Virus record (IMG/VR): IMGVR_UViG_3300027844_002282
Reading direction: 5' to 3' (one strand)
DNA from: a virus
DNA length: 64,000 nt
Shown: positions 8,525-63,885 of the stretch, one piece after another
Numbering within the stretch: the first letter of the stretch is position 1
Layout: each line of letters starts with the position of its first letter
Notes under the pieces: generated by a model
Told to the model about the DNA's origin: nothing
Seen by the model: the letters and a program-made list of their open reading frames with translations, nothing else
The model's database searches: none
Position numbers and translations under genes: made by a program

Positions 8525-9123
8525 ATGGACTGGTATAAAAAATCAACATATGACCCACAAGAAAACGCCACGCATGATTTTTATGAAAAAATCACTGATC
8601 AAGAATATAGGGTGTTAAATGAGTTTGTTCAGAGAACGCCTGGGCAATCTCAACCGTGGCACCCCGTACCATTCGCAAGAGTTCAGAAAATATGGTCTGA
8701 CTTTAACAAGTTTGGATTTGTTAGAGAGACCCGTGGAATGGACATGATTTGCGATAAAAATTAGATAGTATCGCGAAGCTATACGCCAACACTCAGCTTG
8801 CTGGACATACACAATCCGATCCACAAGAGATATATAAAGATTTTCTTGAGGGCCGTGAAGATATAGAAGAGTCTGTAGAGGAACTTGATGGGGCATTCTC
8901 CGAATGGGTATATGACGAAAAGCAGGGCCAATATAGAATTAGTGACTATGCCTTAGAGCCGCTATTCAACTTAGGCACGAGTCTTCTTATGGCCACGGGT
9001 AGCGCTGAGGAGCAGTTAAGATTAATGGATAGGATATTTAACGTGGTGCATCAGAGGTCTGATTTGACCGCCCTATTTCTTGAAGGTGGCACAAGGGCCT
9101 TTATGAAACTTCATGAGGGCTAA
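8525..9123 (+). pseudogene. Frameshifted gene (about 200 aa if repaired)
   Basis: ORF 8525..8764 (MDWYKKS...) stops at an A5 run; the -1 frame continues 120 codons (LDSIAKLYANTQLAGH...ISDYALEPL...NVVHQRSDLTALFLEGG...) to TAA at 9121-9123. Confidence 0.7.
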
Positions 9124-9968
9124 ATCATAAAAAGCCCATAATTGTAAATGGGGTGTTCTTTTACAACGGATTTGAACCCATCGTCCACTTTAGAGGCCAC
9201 AGCTTCCTGAGGACCCCAATAATGATGAAGATCATCGAATTCCTCAACCACCATATTTCCAGTAGCGTTCATCCCGTGATGAATGTCCAAGACATCTTCA
9301 CCGTGTAAGACAAGGCAGCTGCTGCTAAACCCATCCTTATCTATATTTGTTTTTCCAATCGTTGATTCACAGAACCCATCAATACGGGGCTCAAAGTATT
9401 TACTATCGATCTCTTTCGCCTCTATAAACCTTAGAAAAGCGTCTTTCTTGAATGCATACCTACTGAATGCTACCGTGAAGGGGGAGAAAAACCCATTGTT
9501 CACGTCAAAATACACGCTATTCTTCCAGTACACAACATCGGCTCTTTTAAGCCCTTCGACCACGTAATCAATATAATTTTCTGGATATAGAACATCGTGT
9601 TCGAAAATAATAATATTATCTGATGTGGCAAAACTTGCTGCTAATTTCAACTGGGCTATAATTGTTTCTATGGAGTACTCACGTTCTCCAACAACTATGT
9701 TTTTCACTCTTGTTTCTGCCGAGATAACATGGGGAGAACATAGATCGATAGGGGTTTTTAGAATAGCGTCAGAGAGCCTGTCATGTGTCTCTTTTTCAAT
9801 TCCTGGAAGGTCTTTTTCTATCCAATCCTCACGCACTGGATAGTGGGAAACAATTATTAGCTCGGTGTCTTCATCGTCGATCACGCGAGAGATCGCCTCA
9901 GATAGAGTCCACTTTAGAATCTCTTCTGGGATAAGATTGTTTGTGCAAAATACTATTGAATTCTTCAT
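9120..9968 (-). CDS. Putative GT-A fold glycosyltransferase
   Basis: IIIFEHDVLYPENY, a DxD-like motif after a hydrophobic strand as in GT2-like enzymes. Confidence 0.55.
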   Translation of the reverse strand: MKNSIVFCTNNLIPEEILKWTLSEAISRVIDDEDTELIIVSHYPVREDWIEKDLPGIEKETHDRLSDAILKTPIDLCSPHVISAETRVKNIVVGEREYSIETIIAQLKLAASFATSDNIIIFEHDVLYPENYIDYVVEGLKRADVVYWKNSVYFDVNNGFFSPFTVAFSRYAFKKDAFLRFIEAKEIDSKYFEPRIDGFCESTIGKTNIDKDGFSSSCLVLHGEDVLDIHHGMNATGNMVVEEFDDLHHYWGPQEAVASKVDDGFKSVVKEHPIYNYGLFMI

Positions 9969-10014
9969 AATATGTTCTCATTTTTATTTGCGACTTCGAA
10001 GAATATTATACAAC

Positions 10015-10956
10015 CTACATAAGACCGACAGTTGAATGTTGTGGGAACGTCAAGTCGCTAACTTCCTTGCCCCACCAATTAAGCCTTGCAGCCTTATATA
10101 TAGCGCTTCCCTTTTGGATAAATCCCATCTCTACATTTGAGACCATAGAATTCCATATATATCTAACCCTTCGCCTTAGAAGAGCTTGCTCTGTTGTCGA
10201 GTAAGAGAGGCCAGTTGGTCGATTGAGAACAAGCCTTGGAGGACCACTTAAAACTTGTGATATCGAAAAGTCTTCTTCAGTGTTGATCCTGTCCTGAAGC
10301 TCATAACGATAAGAAATATCATCGGTCCAGCCAGCTGTGTCTGCGACATGGATGTCAGTATCTCCGGCTGTGACATTTGCGGCGAGAAGGATTTCATCAT
10401 TAACGATGTCGAGATGGATCTTGTTAATGAATAAGTCAAAAATGTAATCGGCATATTTCTGCACAATTCTCGCGGCATTTTCATGTTCGTCAGACTTTGA
10501 ATAGATACTGACGACAACATTATGCTGAATTGAAAGCCCCCCTTGGATATACATCCATTCCATATCATTCATAGACTCTGGCTCAACAGTGATTGTGACA
10601 TCGGGGTTCGGTATGACTTCGCGATCCCCGAATAAAACGTCTTCATCACCAAGGGGAACATGCGCTATTGCTTTTTGGACCGTGGCAGTGTTTGCTACAG
10701 TGAAATCTGACTCTACAGGATTGACTACCCACAAAGTTGTGGTATCAACAACCTTTAGTATACTATGATACTCAATATGTCCATCTTGAATATCGATAAG
10801 AACTATTCCCTCAGCATCTCTGAATCTGAAAGTGCTGTCAACATTTACAACATTTGTCCCAGTCAGGGCGTCAGAGGCCAATACGGTTCTTGACCCCGCA
10901 TTTTTCCTTATGAAATCTATTATTGCATCAGCAACTTGTTCTAATGAGTGAACCAT
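10015..10956 (-). CDS. Tail completion/terminator-like protein with two inserted beta domains
   Basis: Lies between adaptor and tube; core segments ITVEPES, HNVVVSIY, YKAARLNW; two similar inserts (LASDALTGTNVVNVDS; LAANVTAGDTDIHVAD). Confidence 0.55.
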   Translation of the reverse strand: MVHSLEQVADAIIDFIRKNAGSRTVLASDALTGTNVVNVDSTFRFRDAEGIVLIDIQDGHIEYHSILKVVDTTTLWVVNPVESDFTVANTATVQKAIAHVPLGDEDVLFGDREVIPNPDVTITVEPESMNDMEWMYIQGGLSIQHNVVVSIYSKSDEHENAARIVQKYADYIFDLFINKIHLDIVNDEILLAANVTAGDTDIHVADTAGWTDDISYRYELQDRINTEEDFSISQVLSGPPRLVLNRPTGLSYSTTEQALLRRRVRYIWNSMVSNVEMGFIQKGSAIYKAARLNWWGKEVSDLTFPQHSTVGLM

Positions 10957-11192
10957 CTTGTAACCTTCCTATATAACACTGCTTCTTTCTTAGCTTTTTC
11001 ATAACCGTCTTTCGTCCGAATGTCGTTCTTTTTAGCCTCAAGCGGAGTGTCAGAAAGGCCCTGCGTAACCAGGGGTTCAATCCCATTTACGTCATCCATT
11101 CCTATCGATCCCTTACCGTCCAAGAATCCAGCGACCTTATTCTTAAGATCGCCCAAGACCATTGTGAAATCTGACAAAACTTCTTTTTCCAT
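10941..11192 (-). CDS. Hypothetical protein
   Basis: 83-aa ORF coupled to both neighbours. Confidence 0.6.
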   Translation of the reverse strand: MEKEVLSDFTMVLGDLKNKVAGFLDGKGSIGMDDVNGIEPLVTQGLSDTPLEAKKNDIRTKDGYEKAKKEAVLYRKVTRWFTH

Positions 11193-11193
11193 T

Positions 11194-11922
11194 TTAGTTC
11201 TCTAATGCTTGAGTAACATCCAAATTGTCGATAGACAGGCTTACCGCGTCAAACAATTGGGTTCTAACGAATCTTCTACTATTAAATTCTTGCCCAAGCA
11301 ATCTTATCTGCCCGGCCAAAACCCCATTCATGTCAACTGTAGCCAAATTTCTTAATCTTTTACCATAACCTGAAATATCTGGTGATTGATCCGCCACGAA
11401 TATTTTATCAAGGAGTAGCGAGCAAGCATATCTTGCTGCTATTAATGGAATAGGGTCTGGATACGTTATCATATGAACCATCCCATCGCTTCCTGCATCA
11501 TAGGCGTTTTGTGACGGGGCGCTCAGGGTGATATGATTGTAATTAACCACTGTAATTCCACCCTCAACAACGTTTTCAGGAATGGCTGATACGATACCCT
11601 TCTCTGAACCATTGGAGTCTTCTATCAAAACCGCCTCCCCAACCGCAAATCCACCAACGTCTGAAACGTTAACGTCAGTCGATGCTGGCAACATGTTAGC
11701 TATCAAGTCTGCGGTAACCTTTCTAATCTTTATAACAGGAACAACGTACACTTGTGACAACCGACTGTCTATAAACTGAGCCGCGAATCCAATATACTTG
11801 TTCGCCGTGCTTGTAGATATAGTATTTCCAGCTCTACTGGCCACAGTTGGTGTAGTGTTGTCCCCAATTGTAATATTCTTTGGGAGTAACTCCCTCATAT
11901 CTTGTATTGAACAATATGCCAT
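11194..11922 (-). CDS. Head-tail adaptor (Mu gp36/DUF1320-like)
   Basis: MAYCSIQDMRELLP N-terminus, A..FIDSRL...Y.VP core, P..I..IAARYA; carries an inserted beta domain. Confidence 0.7.
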   Translation of the reverse strand: MAYCSIQDMRELLPKNITIGDNTTPTVASRAGNTISTSTANKYIGFAAQFIDSRLSQVYVVPVIKIRKVTADLIANMLPASTDVNVSDVGGFAVGEAVLIEDSNGSEKGIVSAIPENVVEGGITVVNYNHITLSAPSQNAYDAGSDGMVHMITYPDPIPLIAARYACSLLLDKIFVADQSPDISGYGKRLRNLATVDMNGVLAGQIRLLGQEFNSRRFVRTQLFDAVSLSIDNLDVTQALEN

Positions 11923-12132
11923 TTAACTTCCGCTCCTTGTAACAATCATGGATGGGTATGGTGCCGATTTCTTTTTATTTGATGTTAAAATAGACATTTC
12001 ACTTTCCTTTTTACACTCTGGGCAAACAAATCTTATCGTTTGATCAATGAAATCCAACTCAATTCTCGACATTGATTCCAATTGCCCCTCCGTAACTGCA
12101 CTGCAAACTGCACATCTACAAATAAAAAGCAT
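11923..12132 (-). CDS. Small zinc-ribbon protein
   Basis: CAVC ... CPEC. Confidence 0.65.
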   Translation of the reverse strand: MLFICRCAVCSAVTEGQLESMSRIELDFIDQTIRFVCPECKKESEMSILTSNKKKSAPYPSMIVTRSGS

Positions 12133-12143
12133 TTATTCGCCCC

Positions 12144-12482
12144 TTATAGCTGGCCAAGTCCACGTAATGACCCGGTTGGTGGCAACGTGTTCTGCTCTTG
12201 AACCTTAGACTTGCACATCTCAAGAAGTTTGACCTGAACGCTTGTTAAAACATTGAGAAACTCTTCTGTCTGAGCCTTGTCGATATCGTTTGGCCCAGAG
12301 TTTGCAAACTCGTGCAAACTATCAACAGCCGTATTGATACTTTCGACGCAATTGAATAGCGGGGTCAAAGAACCTTTTCTCGTGTTCTTATCTTTTATAT
12401 CTTTCATGGCGATAATATCAAACGGGGACATGCCCTGCCCCTTCACGACAGCCACTTCTTGATTTTTTTGTGTATCACTCAT
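12144..12482 (-). CDS. Hypothetical protein
   Basis: 112-aa ORF with AGGAG RBS and upstream promoter motif. Confidence 0.65.
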   Translation of the reverse strand: MSDTQKNQEVAVVKGQGMSPFDIIAMKDIKDKNTRKGSLTPLFNCVESINTAVDSLHEFANSGPNDIDKAQTEEFLNVLTSVQVKLLEMCKSKVQEQNTLPPTGSLRGLGQL

Positions 12483-12520
12483 TTTTATCTCCTAAATTGG
12501 CGGTAAACAATCATTATTAT

Positions 12521-12548
12521 GTTCGACAATACTACCTAAACTCCCTTT
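12521..12548 (-). promoter_or_regulatory. AGG-N19-GAAC promoter-like motif
   Basis: Minus strand aaAGG gagtttaggtagtattgtc GAAC. Confidence 0.6.
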
Positions 12549-12588
12549 AATGATGTAAAATCTATCAAGCTATATATGGGGATTATAC

Positions 12589-13233: not shown

Positions 13234-13244
13234 AAAGAATATTT

Positions 13245-13566: not shown

Positions 13567-14667
13567 TCATGTTTGCTTTTCAAAAATAGCCTTCTTCATC
13601 TGTTCTTCTTGAACATGTTTCACTGGGATACACTTTTCACCGGCAAGCATGGCCTTAGAAAGCCTATGGTATCCATCAATAATCTTCCCGTTCTTTGCTC
13701 TAACCAATATTGGATTGCTAAAATCTGAAGTTCTTATCTTCTTCATATGATCAAAATATATTTCATCAAAGGATGGAGAACTCATAACTGACATCGGAGA
13801 GATCGGTCTTTCGCCCACAGCCCAGGCATCACCGTCATACAGCTGATCAGAAAGCTCTTTTATCTTTATTCGTCTAACGGCATTGCCATCAACTATACGA
13901 TTAAGGATCTCCATATCATATACGTAGTTCCCATCACTATAAACTTGCCCCTGAGTCCACGAGCTATCATCGGCAACTATTTTATTTATGACTACAGTCG
14001 CTGCTGTGGCGTCAACTTTTTCGTTCATTCTGTCTAACACGTGTCTGACTCCTGGATGTAATGTTTCTGGGGCATAATCTTGATCATGCCATTCGTGACC
14101 ATGAGATTCTGTTGCAAACTCAGGGGTTGTTCCCCCTTCAATTATTTGATTTAGGTCTTCTTTTTGATCATCGTCAAGGTTTACTATAAATGTTACATAT
14201 GGGATATTGTTCTCCCACTTCACATAACGTTTACTTGACTCATATTGGTCTTCAACACCATATGGAACTCCACCTATCTCTTCCTCCACCTCTTTCAATG
14301 CTGAGACCCATAATGTTTGAATAGAATTCTCATTCAATATCGGCTTTTCTTTTACAGATTGGTAACTCTTATCAATAATATTAGGATTCTCTCTTAAAAA
14401 CTTTTCAAGATCATCAGGGTTTACATCATAATGATTCATTAGTCTACCGCTAACGTTTCTGTGCTCAAGAATTACCGCTATCTTTTCTTCGTGAGACATG
14501 TCTTTAGAAAAGAAAAATTCCCCGTCTAATGCGCCACCTGGAACGCCCCATGTTCCTGAATCTTCTACAGCACCACGAAGTTGTAATAACATTTTCCCAT
14601 TGTTGACAAACATCACTCCAGACGCCATGGTGCCCCACATCAATGAAGCTGTTTTGTGTATTTTCAT
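13567..14667 (-). CDS. Nudix hydrolase + ParB/Srx-like domain fusion
   Basis: LLQLR...GTWGVPGG...ALKEVEEEIG (split Nudix box), LHPGV; C-terminal PILV...IIDGYHRL. Confidence 0.75.
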   Translation of the reverse strand: MKIHKTASLMWGTMASGVMFVNNGKMLLQLRGAVEDSGTWGVPGGALDGEFFFSKDMSHEEKIAVILEHRNVSGRLMNHYDVNPDDLEKFLRENPNIIDKSYQSVKEKPILNENSIQTLWVSALKEVEEEIGGVPYGVEDQYESSKRYVKWENNIPYVTFIVNLDDDQKEDLNQIIEGGTTPEFATESHGHEWHDQDYAPETLHPGVRHVLDRMNEKVDATAATVVINKIVADDSSWTQGQVYSDGNYVYDMEILNRIVDGNAVRRIKIKELSDQLYDGDAWAVGERPISPMSVMSSPSFDEIYFDHMKKIRTSDFSNPILVRAKNGKIIDGYHRLSKAMLAGEKCIPVKHVQEEQMKKAIFEKQT

Positions 14668-20172: not shown

Positions 20173-20175
20173 AGA

Positions 20176-22494: not shown

Positions 22495-23361
22495 TTAGGA
22501 GCTTGATGTCACTGAAACCTTAGCACATGCATAGGAGTTAATGATAACAATTCCAATCTCTTCATAGATAACCCATCCCAAACGAAGAACACGAGGTTCA
22601 TCAGCTGGAATTACGGTGATGTCCTGACGAATCGGGAACGCACCTACATACTCGGCTGGAGCAAGGACGAAGACATCGGTCGTCGGCATTCTTGAGCTAA
22701 CATGAATGTCAGCTGTCCAAATATGGCCGAAGAGACCAGTGGTCAAAACTTCCTTGGTCGTGGCTTCGTCGTAAACCGTCTTACCCCAATTTCTCACATC
22801 AGCATAACGGAGCGGATGCATAACGATCTTACCAACGATAAGGTCATGCTGCTCGACTGTTGCGAAAGCCTGGTTAAGAGCGGTGATTGACAATGCGCCA
22901 CCGGTACTTGTTACGGTATGATTACCATCGATAGCCGCACCAATAACGTTGAAGATCAAACGATCCTCTTCTTTCTGGAGGGCTTCCTTGGCCTTGATTT
23001 GTGCTCTATCAACAATAAAGAACCTACGGGCCTTTACTTCACTCAATCTGATAGTAGGATGTGTCGCGATTTCAAAGAGCGGAACGAGGATTTCCTCGCC
23101 TTCTGTGATACCACGTGGTACACCACCACGTCTTGAGATGACCTGAGCGGTCTGACGAACATCCTTTTCGTAACGAGGCAATGCTCCCTGAGGAAGCTCA
23201 TCAATCATAAGTAACTTACGACCAACGGCCTGATATTCAAGTGCTCGTCTAATGGGTTCTACCATTGCTTGTGCCAATGCTACACGACCCTCTGTGGAAT
23301 CGAGTGCTTGGGCTACGAGGGTCTCCCTCTCGACATTAACTGAACGTTTTTCTAAACTCAT
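22495..23361 (-). CDS. Major capsid protein (HK97 fold)
   Basis: ALAQAMVEPIRRALEYQAVGRKLL..DELPQGALPRYEKD...FEIATHP.I.LSEVK.RRF.IVDRAQ; follows decoration gene; strong terminator. Confidence 0.9.
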   Translation of the reverse strand: MSLEKRSVNVERETLVAQALDSTEGRVALAQAMVEPIRRALEYQAVGRKLLMIDELPQGALPRYEKDVRQTAQVISRRGGVPRGITEGEEILVPLFEIATHPTIRLSEVKARRFFIVDRAQIKAKEALQKEEDRLIFNVIGAAIDGNHTVTSTGGALSITALNQAFATVEQHDLIVGKIVMHPLRYADVRNWGKTVYDEATTKEVLTTGLFGHIWTADIHVSSRMPTTDVFVLAPAEYVGAFPIRQDITVIPADEPRVLRLGWVIYEEIGIVIINSYACAKVSVTSSS

Positions 23362-30418: not shown

Positions 30419-33400
30419 TTAGAAGTTGTATGTCTTATCTTCGCTTTCTCTGTCAGCCATATCCATTCGGATGGCTCTATTCTGTTGCTGACTTCCGATA
30501 GTAAACATGTCCGCAAGCTGGGACTCTATTGAAACGTCAGTCTCATCATTCGCTTGGAACGTTGGCTCTTCAATTATCGCCGATGTCAACATTGGAAGTG
30601 ATGTTGCAGCGGTCTTAGTTGTAGAAGCCTTCTTCTGAGGAAGCAAGAGACGATCAACATGTGCCTTCATACGGTCAAGAGGCATTACTGAAAGGTCATT
30701 AACAAAGTCTGAAACTTCAGCTTCCTTGATAATCCCTCTTTCAACAAGCTGTCCAGCGAATCTGGCGGCATGCTCACGTCTTGCAGACGAGATCTTCTCA
30801 AGCTGCTTCTCTCTTTCGGCTTCACGTCCACGCATCGTTGTGTCGGTTCCGCTATCTTCTGATGGGACAACTGGTTCGATAGTTACTGGTGGGCTTTCAT
30901 TTCCCATGGTCGCATCCGACCTTGGTATATCTGGTCCACCCTCTGTCAAAGCCTGCTCATCGTTAATTGTAGCGTTAGGGTTTCTGACTACATTGTCATG
31001 GCCCTCGATACTCTCAACAACTTCAACCTTTTTCTCGGTGCATGGCTTCTCTTGCAAGGCGTTATCGCCTGTCGTGCTGTCTGGATGCACATGCTCCGCG
31101 TTATCGTTCCTTGTCATAGGCTCAATTTCGCCATATGCTACCTTTTCCATTCCTTCTCCTTGTGATGTTGCTTCGGCCTGGTTCTTCAACGCTGAAGAGT
31201 TGGTCTCGCTGTTTTCAATTGGTACGCTGACGCCTTCGGCTGGAGCGGCTTCTTCTTTACCAATAGTCGCGTTTCCACGTGGTACGTCTGGATCTGCTGG
31301 AGCTTCCGTGTCTTCGTCTCCCATCTTACTTCTGGAAGCAGATGGCTCTTCATTTGGATTTTCCGAAATGGAATCGACATTATCGACCTTCTTTTCGGTG
31401 TTCTTCTGCTCTTTGGTCTTTGTAACACCATCGGAACCCTTATCTACAACTGGTGGCGGATTATCAAATTCTCCCGCTTCCTTTTGCAATTCGGATTCTG
31501 TGAACAAGGCAACTTCCTCTTGAAGACCGGCTGTCAACGCTTCAACATCTGCGCTCACTTCGGTTTCAACAAACTCAGGAAGATCAAAGACTGTCGCAAT
31601 AACCTTACTGGCTTCGGCAACTGTCCCGTCTGGTGCGAGGCTCTTGTCATATTCGGCCATCTTACGCAAGATACCCGTATCAATCTGTGAGGACAACGCT
31701 GCGATATAGATATTGTTATCTTCTTCTCCAGCGAACTTCTCTTTTAAGCAATCGCAAAGCTTGCTTGATTCAGCAACGGTGTAACCCCTCTTCTTCTGAT
31801 CGCGGACGCATTTCTCCATCGGATCTTCAGCTGACTGGGCATCTGCCAAGGCTTGAATATGAGCAATCTTTGTAAATCCGAACCTTGAGGCCTGACTTAC
31901 AATCGTTTCGGAAAAGTCCTGCCCCTTATATGGACCAGTAGTTACCAACTCGATCTCTGGATAGGTATTAGCAACCCACCCGGCTAATCTGTCCTTAGGA
32001 AGATCAACGGTCGCAGCCCTCTTCATCATCTTATCAAAGACCATGGTTGCTGCGAACTTCTTCGCTTCCTGTTTGCAAGAACCGCACTTTCTCTTCATTG
32101 GATCAATTGACCAAGCGATTTGCAACTTACTTTCTGTTGGACTATCAACATTAATCATCATTGTCTTCTCAGTCTCGGTCTTGCACTTGGAGCAAGCAAT
32201 CGTGAGTTCGGATGGATGTCCCTGAACCTGAACCTCTCCGCTTCCGCATGCTGGGCAAATATGTCCAACTTCCTTCTGCATATCAGCGATCTTCTTCATG
32301 GAACCTCTATCAATATCAATCATTGCCGCAACTGGCATCTCTGGCGCTGATGGCGCTTCAAGATCAAGTTCTGACTCGTCATCTTCGGCGACCGACTCTG
32401 GATTCAACAATTCTATGTTTACGTGATACAAGTACTTGATTCCGCAAGAGTTACAGTCGAACTGTCCCGGTTGCTGATCCTTGTTTCCGGTCTCGGTATC
32501 GGTTGATCCACAGACTGGGCAAATCGTTCCCGGTTCCATCTGCTCATCGTCACCAGGAAGCTCTTCTTCATCCGTAAACGACTGGAGGCCAGCGCCTTCT
32601 TCTGGAACGGTATCTGGAGTTAATCCAATAGATGGATCTACGCCACCGCCACTTTCATCCGGGAGGGCTCCGCCTGATCCAGCGCCGGGGTCGCCGCCGC
32701 CAAACTGAGCAACCTTCTTCTCACCCTTCGTTGATGTAAAAGCACCAAGTCCGGTTGATAATTCAGGGGTTTCTGGACCGCCTTCGCCGAAATCGCCCAG
32801 TGGAGCAGCGTCTTCTGGCATCGGACCTTCATCGGCCAAGCCATCGGCCAACTCTATTGGCTCTTCAATCGCACCTTCGTTTTCTACAGGGATCTCAACC
32901 GATCCGCCTTCTGTGTCAACTGCGATAATAACATCGCCGGTATCACCATCAACTGTTACATTGACAACGGCGGCGACCTTGACTCCAAGATGGGCGAACG
33001 CGCCATGCGCAAAGCATGAGGCAGCAGCCTTGACAATGTTGTCATTGCCACGACTTGCTTCTGGGACACCAATTTCTTTGAACGAGGTTTCAATAATATG
33101 ACTTGAGGTTTTAACGGCCTTCCTTTCTAGCGCGGCTGTCAATATATCAACGTCTTCCTTGACTGAGGCTTCCTTGTCGTCAGAGCAGGAGCATTCGCAT
33201 CCAGCACTTTCGCAATCGGTGCATTCCTTGCATTCCTTGTCTTTACACTTGAAACAGAAACCGGAAGCTTTCTTGCATGCGCATTCGCATCCAGCGCTTT
33301 CGCATGTTACACATTCCTTACACTCTTCATTTTCGCACTTCTCGCAGCAATCTGAGGCTTCCGTAATCATGGAATCAAGCTCGCTGTTCATGTCGTCTTC

Positions 33401-35703: not shown

Positions 35704-40482
<4,779 letters not shown>

Positions 40483-40490: not shown

Positions 40491-42773
40491 TTACTTTTTG
40501 TCAGGTATACTATTTTTACGCTTTTCCTCTAGCTTTTTCCTTTGTTCGGTGATCCAGCGCTCTCTTTTTCCTATCTCGTTCATGATCCTGGTCATCACAC
40601 CACCGATGTTACTTTCGATTTCTTCTTCTCCAAATCTAATTATTACCCAACCTTTATTATTTAATTTCTGATCTCTCTTCTTATCTCGCTCTATATTCTC
40701 TGGAGAGCCGTGGAATGTAGTTCCATCACACTCTACTCCAAGCTTAATATCTGGGAACGCAACGTCAATCATAACCGGTCTTCCACCAGTATGCACTTCG
40801 TATGAAGGGGATACGTTATATGTTATCTTCCCACTTCTCTGATGGTTCTCAATAGCTTTGATAACCGCCCTCTCAATAGAAGTAAGCATTATTCTTCCCA
40901 TTCTATCTCTCATGAACCCATCACCACCAACCCCGCTGGGGGATTGAACGTTATGCTCTCTCTTTGATTGTTCTTTATCAACCTTTTCTCTATCTCTATC
41001 AAGCTTTTCTCTGGTTTTGTCAGTTAATATCTTTCCGCCGTATTGTCCAGGGTCCGCCTGTGAGGTTACTTTAATCGATTTAGACGACGCTAAGCCCATT
41101 GGGGCGGCGTCGCCCGGGTCTCCCATGCCTCCGCCCATTTCTCCGCCCATTAAGTCACCACCGCCTGGTTCTCCCATGCCTCCGCCAAGGTCTAAGCCAC
41201 CGCCACCGCCTCCCAGGCCGCCACCCATGTCCATTCCACCCATGCCGCCCTCTTCACCAGCAGCCTGTCCCGGTGGTTGTTCAGCCATCGCTTCAATTCT
41301 TTCCCATCTCATCTGCTCGAATTCAGTGTCTGGATCGATATCGAACTCTGTCAATACTCTTGTGGCACTAATAAGTCCCTTGTCGAACAACTGTAAAATC
41401 ATTTGTCTTTCTTGCTGTCTGTCTCTAAGATTTAAGCTTCCCCATTTTATCTTCGGATAAATCCATTCGTCTTCGCCCCATTCATTGGTCTTTCTAAAGC
41501 CCTTCATCTTAGAAATCGGCAAGTAGATCTCTTCTTCGATCCATCTTTTTAACTCAAGTCTCCACGACTCAAGTCTCTTAATCATTATTTCCGCACCCAT
41601 AGCTGCGCTTGAGTATGTCGGACCTTCACCAGTAATCAACTGCTTGTTAAGACCGAAACCGTCCATAATTTCCTGATTGATGAACTCGTACTCTCCCTGA
41701 ATAGGAAGAACTTGACCATTTGCTCCAACCCAATCGAGTTCGAATGCATGATGAGTAACGATAACCATGTTAGGATCGTTAGATGCCGCCTGTAGCTGCC
41801 CTTGTACGGCAGTAATGTCCGCTTCGCTCGCTGGACGTTCCTCAGTACCGACTTTGACGACCTTGATAGGAAGGATCAGTCTTTCTGCCACGATCCATTG
41901 GGCGGTCATGATCTTCGTCTTATAACTCAAGATCGGGAAAAGTCTTCTGGTCATCGAGATCCCGTATCTTCTATAGCCAGACTCGCCAAATTTCAAATGA
42001 CTTACATTTCTGCTATCTAATGGAATTGGTCTTCCTTGAGCAATAAAATCTTTCACTTCTTTTGACAGCTTATCTGTACCTGGGCCACTCTTAATAACAA
42101 GATCTCGCAATTCATCATCTGGAACGTATGTGATAACGTCTTCTGGTGAAATCGAGTTTGAGAAAACCTCAACAAAGTCGGGATTTAGGATTAGGAGCCT
42201 CTTGAACGTTCCACCTTCATGCTCGCAGATTTCATCTCCAATCCTACCGCTTCCACCGCAATGGTCGCATTCTATTTCTTTGAACGGAAAACAATCTCCC
42301 ATCAAATGGACTTCATGACTAATGAGTCGAGCCCACTTGTCAATGTTTAGTTTCTTGTTAACCTCTTCATCAAAGAAGTGTTTAATGTATCTATCTGAAC
42401 ATTCTGTCTCGAAAGTCGTAATAGGGAACTTGCTGTAAAAATCAATAGCGGTCGCGACACGGGGCTCGTTCTCGTACCAATAGCGACACCACATATATAT
42501 TTCTCGGCGGCGTGATGGGATCTGCCAGTTGATTGGCGTATATACAGGAGAAAAGAACTGTGGCTGACCATAAGAGATTCCAGCTGTCGTCTGCTTTGTT
42601 TTCCTATTGTAACTACCAAAGTTAGAATGGGAAACCGTTGCGGCAGAATAATCCCTTGGTGTCTGTGTTGCTTGTGGCGCTTGCCCGAACGTTGTATTCG
42701 GGCTCGCCTCTAATCGTTCACCCCTCTTAAGACTGTTGAAGTGCTTTTCGAGATCGGCTACTACCATTTCCAT
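40491..42773 (-). CDS. Portal protein fused to a C-terminal Vsr/DUF559-like endonuclease domain
   Basis: Portal-like core (WCRYWYENEPRVATAIDFYS...VSHLK...YGIS...PKIKW..LNLRD), Gly/Met linker, then IDVAFPDIKLGVECDG..FHG....RDKKRDQKL...GWVIIRF. Confidence 0.85.
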   Translation of the reverse strand: MEMVVADLEKHFNSLKRGERLEASPNTTFGQAPQATQTPRDYSAATVSHSNFGSYNRKTKQTTAGISYGQPQFFSPVYTPINWQIPSRRREIYMWCRYWYENEPRVATAIDFYSKFPITTFETECSDRYIKHFFDEEVNKKLNIDKWARLISHEVHLMGDCFPFKEIECDHCGGSGRIGDEICEHEGGTFKRLLILNPDFVEVFSNSISPEDVITYVPDDELRDLVIKSGPGTDKLSKEVKDFIAQGRPIPLDSRNVSHLKFGESGYRRYGISMTRRLFPILSYKTKIMTAQWIVAERLILPIKVVKVGTEERPASEADITAVQGQLQAASNDPNMVIVTHHAFELDWVGANGQVLPIQGEYEFINQEIMDGFGLNKQLITGEGPTYSSAAMGAEIMIKRLESWRLELKRWIEEEIYLPISKMKGFRKTNEWGEDEWIYPKIKWGSLNLRDRQQERQMILQLFDKGLISATRVLTEFDIDPDTEFEQMRWERIEAMAEQPPGQAAGEEGGMGGMDMGGGLGGGGGGLDLGGGMGEPGGGDLMGGEMGGGMGDPGDAAPMGLASSKSIKVTSQADPGQYGGKILTDKTREKLDRDREKVDKEQSKREHNVQSPSGVGGDGFMRDRMGRIMLTSIERAVIKAIENHQRSGKITYNVSPSYEVHTGGRPVMIDVAFPDIKLGVECDGTTFHGSPENIERDKKRDQKLNNKGWVIIRFGEEEIESNIGGVMTRIMNEIGKRERWITEQRKKLEEKRKNSIPDKK

Positions 42774-44969: not shown

Positions 44970-45641
44970 TTACTTATATTCCTTGAGCATCATACCAACC
45001 CACTCAGAGTCATAACCTAAAGTCTTAACCCAATAGGACTTCAACTTCTTTTTATTAGCTGGGGATAGTGTCGCGATTTTAACAAACCTTTCGCTACTCG
45101 CTTCAACAGACGCTGTTTCATCAGAGTACACACCCGCTTCCGCTTCTGGCTCTTCAATCTCTACGACGACCGCTGAATCGCCAGGCTCATCAATGTCGAT
45201 AGCGTCTTCTTCAACAGAAACCGGAACTTCCGCTATTTCATCGTCGCCTTCAACCGTTGCTCCAGCATCGGTCAACGCCTCGGCTGCGTTATCAAGGATG
45301 TCCTGCGCGTCCGCAACCGCTTCGGCTGCTTCGTCAAGGGGATCTCCGCCAAGTTCGGCATCATCGAGATCGTCAATGTCGTCGCCTTCACCGCCAATCT
45401 CGTCTGAAATAGGCGCGTCTTCCAACCCTGGTTCTCCATCGACAACCACTGCCTCTTCAACAGCCACGTCTTCCGGCGGCTCGACCTCAAAAGAAAACTG
45501 TGCAAGCTTTCTTAAATCGTCCGTAGACATAGCGTCAACGCCGATCTTCTCTATATTATCTTCTGTTGAAACAACCTCTTCACCAGGAACGTTATCGGTC
45601 CAGGATCTGTTCTTTCCGCCAGCTGAAAAAATCTTACTCAT
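44970..45641 (-). CDS. Highly acidic scaffold/core-like protein
   Basis: Likely start MSKIFS at 45641 (GGAGG); D/E-rich core flanked by LRKLAQ and FVKIAT; own promoter and terminator. Confidence 0.7.
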   Translation of the reverse strand: MSKIFSAGGKNRSWTDNVPGEEVVSTEDNIEKIGVDAMSTDDLRKLAQFSFEVEPPEDVAVEEAVVVDGEPGLEDAPISDEIGGEGDDIDDLDDAELGGDPLDEAAEAVADAQDILDNAAEALTDAGATVEGDDEIAEVPVSVEEDAIDIDEPGDSAVVVEIEEPEAEAGVYSDETASVEASSERFVKIATLSPANKKKLKSYWVKTLGYDSEWVGMMLKEYK

Positions 45642-45705
45642 ATTAATCCCTCCATTAGATTGCAATTAATTATTGATTCAAAATCAAACCAACATTAATT
45701 CCCCT

Positions 45706-53253: not shown

Positions 53254-53261
53254 TATTACCC

Positions 53262-58258: not shown

Positions 58259-58432
58259 TTACTTCTTGCCTCTTTCTCTCTTGTGTTTCGCCTCGTTTTC
58301 ACTTAAATACTCAAGGATTGCCTGCCCTTCCGTCATACCCTTATCTTTCTTGCTCTTTAGATTTTCCCAATACTCTGTCATCATATTTGAGCTATCTCCG
58401 GCGTCTTGGGCTTCTTTTTTAATATCTTCCAT
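58259..58432 (-). CDS. 57-aa protein below the ORF-track cut-off
   Basis: MEDIKKEAQDAGDSSNMMTEYWENLKSKKDKGMTEGQAILEYLSENEAKHKRERGKK*; AAGGAG RBS. Confidence 0.65.
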   Translation of the reverse strand: MEDIKKEAQDAGDSSNMMTEYWENLKSKKDKGMTEGQAILEYLSENEAKHKRERGKK

Positions 58433-58441: not shown

Positions 58442-59368
58442 TTATGAAATTAGATCTGACCAATCATCAAGAAAGGTCTTCTTCTTTGGTGGTTTTTCCT
58501 GCACCGGAACATTTTGTACCGGAACATCCTGTACTTGAGTATCCGGTGGCGGGGTCTCTTGAACGGGCGGTTCTCTTCTTTTTGTATCAATTACATCTAT
58601 TCGATTAGGGTCAAACATTTCAATTTGATCACGCGCTTGTTCAAGCGTCTCTCTCGCCCGCTGCTCATGATCTTTTCCCTCTTCAATAGAGGTTAAATAA
58701 TTTCTAATGTCATGAGGGTTAACTGGGCCGTCCTTTGTTATAAATTGATACCCAACGATATCATCCAACTTAAATGTTCTTGGTTGACCGCCTCTAGTTA
58801 AATCAACAACAGTTATATTGTCGCCGTCCCTCTCAAATATTTTACCGCTTGGAAGCTTGGCGGTTCCACTTGTTGCTAATTGATGATCTAACATGCCTCT
58901 GTGGCCACCGGTGTACATATAGGATATCTCCATGTTCAACCCGTTCTTTATTGCGAAATCAAGGGCGTCAACAAAGTTCTGTGTTATTCTAACGTTAAAC
59001 TCTTCGGCTCCGGCTGTTTTTATACTGTCTCCAAAACTATGACCAACCACAACATTGTTCTTAGCAAACCACCCACGATTAACTTCAAGTGCGTACCTAC
59101 ATTTTGTCGATGACTTTACGGGCCTTAGAGATAATGGTATCAAGGGTTTAATATCTAACACTTTGAAATCGCTACTCAAAAAGGCTATGTCCAAGGGAAT
59201 ATAGGTGTTAGACATCCAGAAACTAAGGTGCCTATCTGACGCAAAGCAAAATAGCATCCCGCGATTTTCTCCGAGATGCTTCTTGTACATCAGCCCCTGC
59301 TCTCTTGTGTAGGGGTCGTTTGCGACATCTACCATTAAATTAATTGTCTTTTTTTCACTCGCAGCCAC
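58442..59368 (-). CDS. DUF192-family protein fused to a WYL-like domain
   Basis: QGLM...GMLF.F...FWM.NT.IPLDIAF...YALEV..GW (DUF192); then ISY...D.TR...RTFKLDDI (WYL-like). Confidence 0.75.
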   Translation of the reverse strand: MAASEKKTINLMVDVANDPYTREQGLMYKKHLGENRGMLFCFASDRHLSFWMSNTYIPLDIAFLSSDFKVLDIKPLIPLSLRPVKSSTKCRYALEVNRGWFAKNNVVVGHSFGDSIKTAGAEEFNVRITQNFVDALDFAIKNGLNMEISYMYTGGHRGMLDHQLATSGTAKLPSGKIFERDGDNITVVDLTRGGQPRTFKLDDIVGYQFITKDGPVNPHDIRNYLTSIEEGKDHEQRARETLEQARDQIEMFDPNRIDVIDTKRREPPVQETPPPDTQVQDVPVQNVPVQEKPPKKKTFLDDWSDLIS

Positions 59369-60051: not shown

Positions 60052-60060
60052 TTTGACCTC

Positions 60061-62496
60061 CTATACTGTTTCAAAAAATTCCGGCTGCTCTTTAACTACT
60101 TTTGCATGTATTTCTTTCAATTTTTCAAGGCCGTATTCCTTTAGCATGTATTCTCCGTCAGGGCCGTAGCCTATGATCTTCTCATATTCATATGCCAATC
60201 TCTTTTCAGAAACCTTCGCGCCGTCAAACAATAATTCTTTATTTCTATGAATCGACTCATCAAGCTCTGGGTCTATAGAATATCCTCTAAGGTTTAATAT
60301 GATCGCCCTCGTAACCATGAGCGGATTAATCGGGATAACAACGTCTGGGTTGAGGATCGGTCTAACAATCTTGGCCTCAATATCATCCATGGCTTTTCCC
60401 GTTATATCGTAGATATTATTGTCAATAAAACTATAAAGTAGACTATTGACGGTAAAGTCTCTGGCATACACGTCTAAGTGAATTGGGGTCGTTGAGATAT
60501 TCTCTTCTCTCATAAGCGGTCTTACACCCTCTGTGAAAATACGTTTTCCACGAAAGTCCATCGATACGCCTTCATACTCATAACTCATCGTTCCAGTTCT
60601 TTGGCTAAATCCGATATCGACAATACCAAGATCTGCCGCAAGAAGACCGCCAAGTTTTTGAACGTTCTCGACTACCGGAGATGTGAAATCAAGATCGTTA
60701 ACCTCAAGGAAATTCTTTGTCGTTGCCAATGTTCTTGGGAATCCACCAACTACGAAACAGTCTTCTATCCCATATGTCTGTGATAATATCTTACACTTAC
60801 TAAGTATCTTATTGATTGTTTCCTTAAGTCTTCCCTGAAGGTTAACAAATGAGTTTACACGATCAATGTTAGATCCAGAGTTTACATTGTCCTCAATTTC
60901 TTTAATATCTTCTAAGTCTTCATCCCCAGTAATCCAAACTACAACTTTATCCTTGAGATTGTCATTCTCAAATATTGCATACGGAAAATCTCCTAATGCG
61001 TCAACAACATGAGGTAAAGCGTCTTCATGAACAATCAGCCTGGCTACATTTATCTTTTTTGACAAAACCATCTTCTTATAATACCCAACCCTTCTCAATA
61101 TTTGAACAATATAATTCTTAGATTCGTTATCTGTCACATTATAAAGAGAGTTGCCAACTGCCCCAGCAGTACCAAAATCGGATCGGCCAGACCAATAAGT
61201 ATCTCTATCGTTCCACTTCTCTGGTCTATTCCTATGTTCTGGTGAAGCAAGGTCAATCTGGATATCATTTTTCCAGTAAGATCTACCAAATCTATCTTTG
61301 GCTATTTTACCCCTACCGTACCTTTCATCATATCTTCTCATCCAATATCTTCTGTCTGAAGATTCTCCGTCGTAATATCCATGGGTGTCAGAAATATCAT
61401 CAGCCTCAAATGGCTCTCTCCAACCCGCATTAAATCCATTTAGATATCCAAAGACGCCACCAATATGCGGGCCACCAACGTTACTTCTCCATGACGCGAA
61501 CTTAATAAGTTTATTTGTCGATGCCGCTTTTTGAATAGGAATAATCAAAGCGTGAGGAAGCTTGTCCATTAACATTTTCTCTAACGTTACAGACTCTGTC
61601 TCAGCAACCCCCTTCTCTTTCCTTTCTTGAGTAAGGTTTTCCTCACAAGTTTTATCTCCCGATTCGTCACCAGTGTGAAGATTGTTTTCAAGAAGGGTTT
61701 CCACTGAGTCATACTTTGTCCCTTCGGTAGCGAATTCTTGAAAGTTAACCTCTTGATTGGATCTCAACACTGTTTCAATTAGACTCCACTGGAACGGGGC
61801 GATCTGAGCCTTCCTATACCAACTATTTTCATTTGAAGCGTGAGTCATTTCCCCTGTCGTTTCAAAAGGCAGGTTAAACCTATTCATCCCCCAAGAAAGA
61901 AGGGAATTTTGCAACTCTTGACATGGGCCTTCGTCCCCACCTTTGGCATGTAAGGCTTCGTGGGCAATAATGGAAGCTAACTGAACTTTTCGAAGGTTGT
62001 TCTTATCATCCTCGGTAATCGTATCTGGATCGGAGTCCAAAATCATTTGGTCAGTAATATCCATGATTCTTGCAATATCGATGCCAATAACGCTTCCACC
62101 TTCAGATTTTTTCTTTTCAAAAAGTCTTCTCATCTCTTCTGTCACTTCTTCTGGATCTTTATCTGGAGAATATGCATATAGAAGATCACTTTCTGAAGGG
62201 CTCTCTGGAATATTAGTTACATAACCAGATCTTTCAAGCTCTTTCTTAACCCTGACCCAATCAACTGTTTCGTTCAATGATGGGTTGAAAACCCCGAATG
62301 CATCTACATCAGTAGAATTGTAAATGTATGCTACATTTTTCAACAGATCTCCCCCAGCAAATTCGTTAACTAACGAAACAGCCTCGGAAGCGCCGGGGAA
62401 TCTCCCGGAAATTTCATCAGAATTAACATTTCCTGAGCCTACGTTCTGCTCAATTGTGTCAACCTTCTGTTCTATCTCTTGCAATTCTGGATTCAT
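60061..62496 (-). CDS. HExxH metalloprotease-like domain fused to a class II CCA-adding/poly(A) polymerase-type nucleotidyltransferase
   Basis: IIAHEALH (HExxH at 61948-61962); C-terminal FVVGGFPR...DLDF...ARDFTVNSL...D.TG....DI....VR...VSEKRL. Confidence 0.8.
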   Translation of the reverse strand: MNPELQEIEQKVDTIEQNVGSGNVNSDEISGRFPGASEAVSLVNEFAGGDLLKNVAYIYNSTDVDAFGVFNPSLNETVDWVRVKKELERSGYVTNIPESPSESDLLYAYSPDKDPEEVTEEMRRLFEKKKSEGGSVIGIDIARIMDITDQMILDSDPDTITEDDKNNLRKVQLASIIAHEALHAKGGDEGPCQELQNSLLSWGMNRFNLPFETTGEMTHASNENSWYRKAQIAPFQWSLIETVLRSNQEVNFQEFATEGTKYDSVETLLENNLHTGDESGDKTCEENLTQERKEKGVAETESVTLEKMLMDKLPHALIIPIQKAASTNKLIKFASWRSNVGGPHIGGVFGYLNGFNAGWREPFEADDISDTHGYYDGESSDRRYWMRRYDERYGRGKIAKDRFGRSYWKNDIQIDLASPEHRNRPEKWNDRDTYWSGRSDFGTAGAVGNSLYNVTDNESKNYIVQILRRVGYYKKMVLSKKINVARLIVHEDALPHVVDALGDFPYAIFENDNLKDKVVVWITGDEDLEDIKEIEDNVNSGSNIDRVNSFVNLQGRLKETINKILSKCKILSQTYGIEDCFVVGGFPRTLATTKNFLEVNDLDFTSPVVENVQKLGGLLAADLGIVDIGFSQRTGTMSYEYEGVSMDFRGKRIFTEGVRPLMREENISTTPIHLDVYARDFTVNSLLYSFIDNNIYDITGKAMDDIEAKIVRPILNPDVVIPINPLMVTRAIILNLRGYSIDPELDESIHRNKELLFDGAKVSEKRLAYEYEKIIGYGPDGEYMLKEYGLEKLKEIHAKVVKEQPEFFETV

Positions 62497-62498
62497 AA

Positions 62499-62879
62499 TT
62501 ATGCTGTCTCTGGACCCTCTTGGACGACTTCTTGCTGTCTCGCAATATCCGCTCTCTGTTCCTCACGGACTGTGTCAACAACTCCGGCACTTGGGTCGTC
62601 TGGTGGCTCATCATCTCCAAACCCGGCTCCGTTTCTCATCTCACCCTGAGATTGCTGTAAACTCTTTGAAGCATCAGATATCGCAAACAAATCATTAAAA
62701 AGATTTATCTCATTTGTTCCCCTGTGCTCACCCTCTTTGGCTTCAATGGCAATATCTACGCCTGTGCCATCATCATTTATCTTGTAACAAACAGTCCATT
62801 CGGCTCTCTGAACGTTTCCCGCTCCAGTTTGCGCCTTAACTAACTGCCCACTACTGTCTACCTTATATATTTTCATCAC
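62499..62879 (-). CDS. Hypothetical protein
   Basis: 126 aa, GGAGG RBS, LVKAQ motif. Confidence 0.65.
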   Translation of the reverse strand: MMKIYKVDSSGQLVKAQTGAGNVQRAEWTVCYKINDDGTGVDIAIEAKEGEHRGTNEINLFNDLFAISDASKSLQQSQGEMRNGAGFGDDEPPDDPSAGVVDTVREEQRADIARQQEVVQEGPETA

Positions 62880-63885
62880 TTACCTCCTGTTGTAAAAACT
62901 TTGAAAACCTCTTAAAACAAACATCTATAGGGATACCTGCATTTAACCCGTAATTTCCTACTGATTCCACTATTACGGCGGCTATCCCAAAAACCCTTCC
63001 ATCTGACGAATCAACAACCGCTCCGCCACTTGATCCTGGATACACAGATAAATCCATAAAGAAATAATTGCTTCCGCTATTTATCTCTCTGTCTTTAGAC
63101 GAGATTATTCCTCGTGACACATTATTGTCATAACCATATGGGCTACCAACGCAAAGTATAGATTCTCCGACGCCGACCGAATCGATTCTTTTAGGCTCTA
63201 CCTCTGTGTGTTTTACAGAGTCGCAATAAAGAACAGCGATATCCAATTCATAGTCAACGTCTAATATTGTTGCCGAATACTGTCTGTCTCCATCTATAAC
63301 ATACGCCGATACACTTTCAAAGCGTTCCTCGTTTCTACTGATTACGTGTGCGCATGTGATGAGGATGTTTGGTTTAACAAAAAAACAAGATCCCACCTCT
63401 TTGACCCCGTGGGTGTGAGACTCTGTCTCTATCTTAAAGCATGAAGATAGAAGATCTGCGACGATTGGAACCATTTCCGTTTCTTTATTGGCGGTTTTCA
63501 TCATAGTATCATCGCTTGATGCCATGGGGGATATTAGACGCCATTTTTTGTTCTTCTTACCAAGATCCGCAACTATCTCATGAATAGGTCTGTTTTCATA
63601 AACGACCTGCTTACCGCCTTCTAAATACACAACAAATCGTCTTACTTTATCGCCAAGTAATCCTGATCTATTCCAAAGGTCTTCCCCATGAAACGGGTCG
63701 TTGATATGCCAAGATATATCTACCGTGTCAGGACTTGATATTCCAGTATGGTCCGAAAAACCCTTATCTAAATCTTTTCTTCTCTTAAGATCTCTATCAA
63801 TATTTAGAGCGCGGCCTTTGTCGGTTATAGGACTAAGCTTATCGTCCAAGAACGGCATCGTCGTTCTATATGATTTAATTTGCAA
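62863..63885 (-). CDS. Trypsin-like (HtrA/S1C-type) serine protease without PDZ, with N-terminal extension
   Basis: GSCFFV...ITCAHVI (His), DIAVL (Asp), PGSSGG (Ser), VGSPYG...VSRGIIS. Confidence 0.9.
   Translation of the reverse strand: MQIKSYRTTMPFLDDKLSPITDKGRALNIDRDLKRRKDLDKGFSDHTGISSPDTVDISWHINDPFHGEDLWNRSGLLGDKVRRFVVYLEGGKQVVYENRPIHEIVADLGKKNKKWRLISPMASSDDTMMKTANKETEMVPIVADLLSSCFKIETESHTHGVKEVGSCFFVKPNILITCAHVISRNEERFESVSAYVIDGDRQYSATILDVDYELDIAVLYCDSVKHTEVEPKRIDSVGVGESILCVGSPYGYDNNVSRGIISSKDREINSGSNYFFMDLSVYPGSSGGAVVDSSDGRVFGIAAVIVESVGNYGLNAGIPIDVCFKRFSKFLQQEVSDENI

Follow-up and report, generated by a model that had tools for sequence, protein, structure and literature searches.

What signal does the prohead protease of a phage G-like virus recognise, and which proteins carry it? 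The question is raised by a 64,000-nucleotide stretch of IMG/VR virus record IMGVR_UViG_3300027844_002282 (one strand, 5' to 3'; referred to below as the window). A first-pass annotation of this DNA had noticed a Lys-x-Ala/Ser motif recurring in a protease-scaffold fusion and in several other proteins, and had proposed that it marks the cut sites of the protease and frees enzymes packaged in the head. Our analysis indicates that Lys-x-Ala (K-x-A) followed by a small or polar residue is very likely the recognition signal of the lineage's own prohead protease within the scaffold; with less assurance, the same can be held with accessory proteins included among the substrates. Three genes are central to the argument:

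22495..23361, minus strand, major capsid (major head) protein (PHROG and Pfam)
30419..35683, minus strand, prohead protease-scaffold fusion of 1754 residues with the head-maturation protease at its N-terminus (phrog_18299 and phrog_2774)
40491..42773, minus strand, portal protein fused to an MTES_1575/DUF559 nuclease (Pfam and PHROG)

All long open reading frames (ORFs) of the window are on the minus strand, and domains were ascribed to them by PHROG and Pfam scans. Their order is portal, a 1592-residue protein, protease-scaffold, a 2074-residue protein with an AAA+ domain, decoration protein and capsid protein, the same core order being found in relatives; the protease gene thus lies between those of the portal and the major capsid protein, as expected of a prohead protease. 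Smaller ORFs contain DUF192, Nudix, Trypsin_2 and PolyA_pol-head domains. Identity to Bacillus phage G is 55% for the capsid protein (with gp27), 44-46% for the protease domain (with gp19) and 34% for the portal. The first two values mark the window as the structural module of a phage G-like huge phage. For comparison we used 30 IMG/VR loci, 38-59% identical in the protease domain, two of which are complete genomes of 461 and 548 kb; counts pooled over these relatives reflect shared ancestry and are not independent events.

The 21 strings cited in the first-pass annotation are all present, 20 in minus-strand ORFs and one, WYKKS, in a plus-strand ORF of 79 residues. As originally written, [ILMFVK]-x(0,1)-K-x-[AS], the motif is at chance level outside the protease-scaffold (121 copies observed and 108 expected from per-protein shuffles), and about 12 copies would be expected by chance in a single protein of 1754 residues. 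The claim of a recurring motif stands for the protease-scaffold and for the refined K-x-A form, but not for the loose definition. In this protein K-x-A occurs 24 times versus 11.5 expected (p ~8e-4 before correction), 17 of the 24 copies being followed by S, A or G (the binomial tail, computed for at least 18 of 24, is 4e-7), and K-x-A-[SAGQ] occurs 18 times versus 3.5 expected from composition-preserving shuffles (z 8.5). An unbiased scan of three-residue patterns rendered K.AS as its top non-cysteine pattern. Moreover, the motif is enriched 3-5 fold in the protease-scaffold orthologue of each of the 30 relatives (z 1.3 to 8.2), and phage G contains K-x-A-[SAG] four times in gp19 (0.5 expected), nine times in gp7 (1.7 expected) and three times in the portal (0.66 expected). 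The actinobacteriophage homologues Myrna gp97 and Rhodococcus E3 gp77 show only about 2-fold enrichment of [KR]-x-A, which confines a clear rule to the phage G-like clade.

A specificity profile was obtained by pooling 26 orthologues of the protease-scaffold, with positions numbered from a putative scissile bond after the Ala. Enrichment was found at P4 for I, M and L (7.5-9x), at P3 for K (3.8x) and R (2.8x), at P2 for T (16x) and V (9.6x), at P1 for Ala only (3.8x), and at P1' for S (6.7x) and also for Y, Q, F, T, G and A, the best consensus being [I/L/M]-K-[T/V/x]-A-[S/G/A/Q/T]. Enrichment and profile together bear out the earlier suggestion that the predicted specificity is centred on K-x-A and not on Glu. 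In a protein rich in Lys, Ala and Ser the motif might be an artefact of composition or of helix periodicity, as the chance frequency of the loose motif in most proteins and the only ~2-fold enrichment of K-x-A alone in the window protein could suggest. However, the control patterns KA[SAG], K..A[SAG], and the reversed [SAG]A.K and A.K were all at 0.9-1.1x over the same 26 orthologues, which excludes both effects, the composition-preserving shuffles point the same way, and the sites keep their positions amid poorly conserved surroundings; an artefact is therefore barely credible.

The assignment of the N-terminal part as a protease, made in the first-pass annotation, was confirmed at the level of a predicted structure, in which residues ~50-225 appear to fold like T4 gp21 and herpesvirus assemblin.

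35009..35536, minus strand, protease fold, residues 50-225 (AlphaFold2 model, Foldseek, invariant columns)

In the AlphaFold2 model (mean predicted local distance difference test, pLDDT, 66) residues 50-225 form a confident core, and residues 1-48 and most of 226-247 have low confidence. The best Foldseek match in the PDB was T4 gp21 (5JBL, E 8e-4, probability 1.0), followed by the proteases of human cytomegalovirus, varicella-zoster virus, herpes simplex virus 2, Kaposi's sarcoma-associated herpesvirus and pseudorabies virus; phrog_18299, "head maturation protease", was matched at 7e-15. Candidate catalytic residues are His106 and Ser157, both invariant among 12 sequences, and His183, which is conserved in at least 90% of them. 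Most of the more distant relatives (L013-L031) carry an intein in the protease, with a Hint domain and a LAGLIDADG-like LIG(L/Y)F(L)AEGS block, inserted directly after the invariant Ser-Met-Gly (codons Thr-Ser-Met-Gly; about 35200-35215 in the window, residues 157-160); the window gene has no intein.

Four copies of the motif lie immediately around this fold. They were compared in an alignment of the first 330 residues of the protease-scaffold:

35621..35632, minus strand, site 1, KIAS at residues 18-21 of the disordered N-terminal leader (M-A-x-Y-K-x-A-T at residues 5-8 in relatives)
35561..35572, minus strand, site 2, KTAS, residues 38-41, directly before the fold (alignment, phage G gp19)
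34931..34942, minus strand, site 3, KAAS, residues 248-251, directly after the fold, a candidate analogue of the release site (alignment, AlphaFold2 model)
34862..34873, minus strand, site 4, KEAS, residues 271-274 (relatives have K-x-[AG]-G/S about 20 residues past site 3)

Site 2 reads [IVL]-K-x-A-[SAQ] in gp19 and in every aligned relative (9/9), K38, A40 and S41 being invariant, and site 3, a predicted self-release site in a segment of low pLDDT, is kept as K-[VIA]-A-S in 9/9 relatives and gp19. The four K-x-A-[SAG] sites of phage G gp19 are at places equivalent to those of the window. When disorder in the model was overlaid on the sites, as the first-pass annotation had proposed, the four conserved sites were found to bracket the fold in segments with predicted pLDDT <50. 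This placement bears on a second alternative, namely that K-x-A is not cut but acts as a short linear binding motif, with the capsid protein, the portal or a chaperone as possible partners, or as a sorting tag. Its position in disordered segments would suit such a function, and an N-terminal leader shared by unrelated proteins of relatives (see below) behaves like an address tag. On the other hand, the positions bracketing the fold are exactly those at which proteases of the assemblin and gp21 types release themselves, the scaffold, which has to be removed, contains about a dozen copies, the motif is depleted in the capsid protein, and modules that are separate in one genome are joined at the motif in another, all of which makes binding without cleavage an improbable explanation.

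The recognition signal proposed here extends into the scaffold part, where some sites are conserved and others lineage-specific:

32705..32716, minus strand, conserved internal KVAQ, residues 990-993 ([IL]-x-K-x-A-Q in 8/9 relatives, in a region of low identity)
33161..33274, minus strand, Cys-rich insert specific to the window, residues 804-841, with its own KKAS and KEAS (alignment of relatives)
30605..30634, minus strand, KKAS and KTAA, residues 1684-1693, candidate analogue of the maturation site (motif count, comparison of C-termini)

The sites at residues 627, 990, 1131, 1221 and 1316 are kept in 6-8 of nine relatives (627 and 1131 in seven), in surroundings of only 22-40% local identity (15-40% over the sites at 38, 248, 627, 990 and 1131). 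KKAS/KTAA precedes the C-terminus by 64-70 residues and is upstream of a conserved tail, to which we ascribe a putative scaffold role; in relatives a K-x-A or a conserved I-N-E-A-S is found upstream of the tail, at no single aligned position. In most relatives this I-N-E-A-S, which has no Lys and resembles herpesvirus maturation sites (V-N-A|S), is ~45 residues before the end; the window has IIEEPT there and KKAS/KTAA slightly upstream. By eye, the end of phage G gp21 resembles the conserved tail, and the 1754-residue protein may correspond to gp19, gp20 and gp21 joined. The protease-scaffold also has CxxC clusters (residues 770-840, 1055-1080 and 1143-1204; C..C 13 versus 0.9 expected), which are probable zinc ribbons, one of them being the insert specific to the window.

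A sequence of events compatible with this arrangement can be proposed. The protease would be made as the N-terminal part of the fusion, would free itself in the procapsid at the two sites before and the two after its fold, and would then chop the scaffold part at about a dozen further sites, the conserved C-terminal tail being probably detached, much as in herpesvirus pUL26, which has release and maturation sites. A limited number of other proteins would carry the same signal, either as an N-terminal leader or in disordered linkers between domains.

The distribution of the motif outside the protease-scaffold was assessed with a scoring matrix trained, for the window, only on relatives. It rendered eight matches in the protease-scaffold (0.5 expected) and 12 in all other window proteins pooled (4.2 expected), the latter including three in the 58-64 kb gene cluster (0.4 expected), two in genes just upstream of the portal (0.2 expected), three in the neck region at 9-12.5 kb (0.3 expected) and the N-terminus of a Nudix/ParB protein. 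In the portal and the capsid protein, as in the tail, fibre-like and glycosyltransferase regions, the motif does not exceed chance frequency. The motif had been described as rarer in tail and fibre proteins, which holds in that there is no enrichment there, but the level found is simply that of chance. Neither did a comparison of head and tail proteins reveal any general enrichment in the head proteins of the window beyond a handful of sites, although few other ORFs of the window are named by Pfam or PHROGs and clean head and tail classes are unattainable. In the loci of the relatives, the motif was observed 79 times in portal fusions (29 expected), with a recurrent [ILM]-K-[YTF]-A-S ~40 residues from the C-terminus, 141 times in unassigned neighbours (67 expected) and 17 times in a small conserved protein encoded between portal and protease (6.8 expected). 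In their capsid proteins K-x-A-[SAG] is absent (0 versus 6.8 expected), and in decoration proteins it is at chance (3 versus 2.7); the major capsid protein of the window also lacks the motif, and these counts suggest that capsid-shell proteins have been selected against it. In the complete 461-kb relative, plain K.A[SAG] was found 21 times in the head module (7.2 expected) and elsewhere at 0.84 of expectation.

Two further observations concern the neck. The window region 9120-12482 (minus strand), with small proteins around the head-tail adaptor, has nine K-x-A (3.3 expected) besides its three matrix matches, and the homologous region of the 461-kb relative (G001, 100-120 kb) has six matrix matches.

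The candidate accessory substrates were located as follows:

60061..62496, minus strand, protein of 811 residues with an HExxH N-terminal domain, a disordered linker and a CCA-adding-enzyme-like C-terminal domain (Pfam, AlphaFold2, homologues)
61804..61821, minus strand, its internal WYRKAQ tag, residues 226-231 ([KR]-x-A-Q kept in the family, Q231 invariant)
61492..61503, minus strand, its KFAS, residues 332-335 (family alignment)
14644..14655, minus strand, KTAS, residues 5-8 of the Nudix/ParB protein at 13567-14667 (matrix match, leader of homologues)
59009..59020, minus strand, KTAG at residues 117-120, where the DUF192 domain ends in a 308-residue fusion at 58442-59368 (matrix, relatives)
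58406..58417, minus strand, KEAQ, residues 6-9 of a 57-residue ORF at 58259-58432 that begins MEDIKKEAQ (comparison with the relatives L057 and L058)
63487..63498, minus strand, KTAN at residues 130-133, in the linker that precedes the Trypsin_2 domain of the ORF at 62863-63885 (matrix, relatives)
45069..45509, minus strand, KLAQ (residue 53) and KIAT (residue 196) of an acidic 231-residue protein at 44970-45665, upstream of the portal (matrix, candidate sites)

The 811-residue protein has 16 full-length homologues at 34-51% identity in which HExxH (H179, E180 and H183) is invariant; the N-terminal domain has no Pfam or PHROG match. At residues 228-231 the family keeps [KR]-x-A-Q within N-x-W-Y-K-x-A-Q, and at 332-335, following a linker of variable length and with [ILMV] before the Lys, it keeps K-x-A-[SAGR] in 16 of 17 sequences and R-x-A-G in the other, the Ala being invariant. 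Five or six different residues occur at P2 of either site; in a third conserved element, R-L-A-Y, which belongs to the folded C-terminal domain, P2 does not vary. In the AlphaFold model both sites are in the segment 214-391 (pLDDT 23-50), between the confident N-terminal and CCA-adding-like C-terminal domains.

Most homologues of the Nudix/ParB protein have the leader M-x-W-Y-K-x-[A/S/G], of which MKIHKTAS in the window is a degenerate copy. A pattern scan of IMG/VR and JGI metagenome contigs found no close relatives of the 811-residue and Nudix/ParB genes, the homologues having come from the protein database, and the Nudix/ParB protein and most of the 811-residue protein are absent from five larger IMG/VR relatives. 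At the DUF192 junction the site is partly kept among the window and its syntenic relatives L057 and L058 (IKTAG, LKTNR and IKTSK; [IL]-K-T-[A/N/S] in relatives), and in the trypsin linker (MMKTAN, LVKVGQ and MIKESQ) the Lys is kept and the Ala is replaced by Gly or Ser. The 57-residue module is a separate gene in L058 and is fused in frame behind the DUF192 protein in L057, with FIKESQ at the joint. The acidic protein has two matrix matches versus 0.05 expected. These comparisons suggest that about eight sites outside the protease, in the 811-residue, Nudix/ParB, DUF192, 57-residue and trypsin-like proteins, gain support from conservation. The earlier proposal that enzymes carry the signal at N-termini or domain junctions is thus upheld for the 811-residue HExxH/nucleotidyltransferase protein, the Nudix/ParB leader, the DUF192 junction and the 57-residue module.

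Four of the 12 examples that had been cited outside the protease do not conform to the refined motif or are not conserved. LEKRS of the capsid protein is not K-x-A and is not shared with phage G, and the motif is avoided by the relatives' capsid proteins. IKVTSQ between portal and nuclease has Thr at P1 (0.7x in the profile), and four relatives of the same architecture have no Lys there. NKIVA at the Nudix/ParB junction and LVKAQ of a 126-residue protein have the wrong spacing and are not conserved.

An N-terminal leader extends the comparison to unrelated proteins. In the 461-kb relative, 12 proteins with no detectable mutual similarity start with M-[NSG]-W-Y-K-x-[AS]-Q/K, and the internal tag of the 811-residue family and the Nudix/ParB leaders are the same sequence as this MNWYK-x-A-Q leader. 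Leader-like sequences in the window are limited to the degenerate MKIHKTAS, the internal WYRKAQ and MDWYKKS, which begins the 79-residue ORF:

8525..8764, plus strand, ORF of 79 residues starting MDWYKKS, a variant of the MNWYK leader (GGAG 8 nucleotides upstream)

This ORF, which appears to be the only plausible plus-strand gene of the window, had no homologue among the fetched loci of relatives. It is preceded by a good ribosome-binding site and overlaps the minus-strand ORF 7401-8558 at the GTG listed as the start of the latter; the first 36 residues of that minus-strand ORF look spurious, Met37 (MKVGFILTGG) being the likelier start. Our literature searches found neither the K-x-A rule nor the MNWYK tag.

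It could also be the case that the motif is read by another enzyme, such as the trypsin-like protein at 62863-63885, the HExxH domain of the 811-residue protein or a protease of the host. Trypsin-type enzymes cut after Lys, and Lys is the most conserved residue of the motif apart from Ala; moreover, a Trypsin_2 domain and an invariant HExxH are both encoded near the head genes. However, a strict Ala two residues after the Lys is not a trait of trypsin. A Trypsin_2 search, whose control was matched in 12 of 14 genomes, found nothing in the two complete relatives (461 and 548 kb), which also lack any match to the HExxH part of the 811-residue protein, and yet their protease-scaffolds are still enriched (11 versus 2.7 and 8 versus 2.9). 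Phage G keeps the four gp19 sites, and its published protease list includes no trypsin-like enzyme (PMC12484599). Another reader is thus very improbable, and the prohead protease appears to be the only candidate that is present wherever the motif occurs.

If the prohead protease is the reader, several observations nevertheless weigh against our interpretation, some of them against cleavage itself and others against substrates other than the scaffold. The cut signal is read from sequence, conservation and a predicted fold, and the scissile bond is placed after the Ala by analogy. The fold match is modest, with a template modelling score of 0.45-0.49 normalised to gp21 and a model of mean pLDDT 66. 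In the 461-kb relative, the 21 matrix matches in the 20-kb head module, versus mostly 0-2 (maximum 6) per 20 kb elsewhere, are inflated, as the training set included the protease of that genome; the plain count given above is therefore the cleaner figure. Most window proteins other than the protease are at chance, the portal has no site, and the giant neighbours of 1592 and 2074 residues are not enriched. The accessory proteins have a single site each, and close relatives have G, S or N in place of Ala at P1 of the trypsin and DUF192 sites.

The last observations favour an alternative in which only the protease-scaffold, and in relatives also the portal and a few core head proteins, is cut, the matches in window enzymes being coincidental or serving another purpose, so that there would be no enzyme cargo. 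The pooled matrix count outside the protease-scaffold is consistent with it, amounting to an excess of only ~8 sites, and so is the absence of the 811-residue, Nudix/ParB and trypsin genes from the complete relatives, which means that they are not core head genes. Against it, the two sites of the 811-residue family are kept over 34-100% identity, with a variable P2 and in a disordered linker; fusion or fission of the 57-residue module occurs exactly at the motif; and the same motif closes the MNWYK-x-A-Q leader that unrelated proteins of relatives share. We consider a restriction to the scaffold unlikely. The 811-residue and Nudix/ParB proteins, the DUF192 fusion, the 57-residue module, the trypsin-like protein and the acidic 231-residue protein would then probably be substrates of the same enzyme and, if so, would have to enter the procapsid.

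Whether these proteins are a cargo of the capsid is a further step. We regard it as possible, if doubtful, that the CCA-adding-like nucleotidyltransferase, the Nudix/ParB protein, the DUF192 protein and the trypsin-like protease of the window are packaged in this way, in which case genes could fuse or split at the code without loss of function. Equally tentative is the wider idea that one code, [I/L/M]-K-x-A|[S/Q/G], is read throughout a clade including phage G by a herpesvirus-like head protease, and serves both the dismantling of the scaffold and the loading and release of exchangeable capsid enzymes that would be delivered with the DNA.

Other observations concern the neighbouring genes. 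In the 1592-residue protein (35704-40482, minus strand) only the first 124 residues are homologous to the protein of 140-160 residues encoded between portal and protease in all relatives, the remaining ~1470 residues being a lineage-specific extension. The small protein of the relatives has a leader ending in K-x-A-G, and the window version lacks the leader and begins directly after it; translation may in fact start at Met6 (MEKLKD...), the position aligned with the residue following the K-x-A-G leader. A 36-nucleotide tandem repeat encoding a Pro-rich linker (PPAAVAEPIPEP...) is found at 24371-24522 and 36134-36283, and is common to the C-terminal parts of the 2074-residue AAA+ and 1592-residue genes (up to ~93% identity), whose proteins are otherwise unrelated. 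Portal and nuclease are joined by a Gly/Met-rich linker, an architecture shared with L009, L011, L019 and L029; portal fusions of other relatives have 1100-1870 residues. Three tandem paralogous glycosyltransferase genes (phrog_2170) lie directly downstream of the capsid gene, and the presumed fibre region includes a capsule-synthesis-like gene and a concanavalin-like lectin domain (50986-53295). Together these features, at 17160-21657 (minus strand) and also at 55640-56566, suggest that virion proteins are glycosylated.

A Lys-x-Ala rule would make mature head proteins, propeptides and candidate capsid-loaded enzymes readable from sequence in the phage G-like huge phages, most of which are uncultivated, and would explain protease genes of 1800-2400 codons. 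Since phage G can be grown, the rule is directly testable. Prohead proteases have been described to trigger immunity by CBASS (an anti-phage signalling system based on cyclic oligonucleotides) through their cleavage specificity (PMC12991175), and a different specificity therefore bears on which defence sensors such phages would trip.

Among known systems, the nearest cultivated relative is the head module of phage G (gp14 portal, gp19 protease, gp21 and gp27 capsid protein). There the protease is a separate protein of 300 residues, followed by gp20 and gp21, unlike the single fusion of 1754 residues in the window. The literature that we searched, which did not extend to work on the structure and proteomics of phage G, contained no cleavage rule for this phage.

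The accessory proteins recall the polyvalent proteins of phages and conjugative elements, multi-domain proteins from structural regions of phage genomes, with zincin-like peptidase, nucleotidyltransferase and ParB-type domains, that have been predicted to be packaged and proteolytically released (PMC5512222). Similar combinations in the window are HExxH with the CCA-adding-like nucleotidyltransferase, Nudix with ParB-like, DUF192 with its extension, and portal with restriction endonuclease, the HExxH alone being the likeness of the 811-residue domain to the polyvalent MPTase family. In contrast to polyvalent proteins, the predicted release signal of the window proteins matches the prohead protease and not an embedded peptidase, and the proteins are small, with two or three domains.

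The published phage prohead-protease rules with which we compared ours are for cutting after Glu: I/L-x-E for T4 gp21 (PMC12991175) and A-x-E for SPN3US gp245 (PMC10052503), phiKZ gp175 being, like gp245, an A-x-E cutter (PMC10052503, PMC12991175). As in T4 and phiKZ, a single protease would act on many head proteins at a short motif, and T4 gp21 (5JBL) is the best structural match; the leaders ending in the motif on unrelated proteins of the 461-kb relative are also reminiscent of T4 targeting. Unlike in T4, phiKZ and SPN3US, the predicted P1 is Ala and not Glu, and MNWYK-x-A-Q is unrelated to the T4 capsid-targeting sequence. Moreover, unlike in T4, only one to three window proteins have a leader-like start, and the capsid protein has no propeptide.

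The closest parallel in layout is herpesvirus pUL26, in which protease, release site, scaffold, maturation site and capsid-binding tail follow one another, an order that is likened to that of the window protein from its sequence. Both have a protease of the same fold class according to Foldseek, placed at the N-terminus of a scaffold fusion, with a release site (predicted here) right after the fold; a further site upstream of the conserved tail is a candidate counterpart in the window protein. Ala occupies P1 at both the release and the maturation sites of herpesviruses, with Ser or Thr at P1' (PMC4498786), as would be the case at the sites proposed here. The two systems differ in that Lys or Arg at P3 and an aliphatic P4 appear to be required in the window lineage, unlike for assemblin, and in that the window protein has two sites ahead of the fold and roughly a dozen along the scaffold, is a fusion of 1754 residues with probable zinc-ribbon inserts and shows ~10% identity to assemblins. 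If cleavage occurs as proposed, Lys-x-Ala, with its Ala at P1, would give phages their first rule of the herpesvirus type, and the two branches of the assemblin fold would be tied by specificity as well as by structure.

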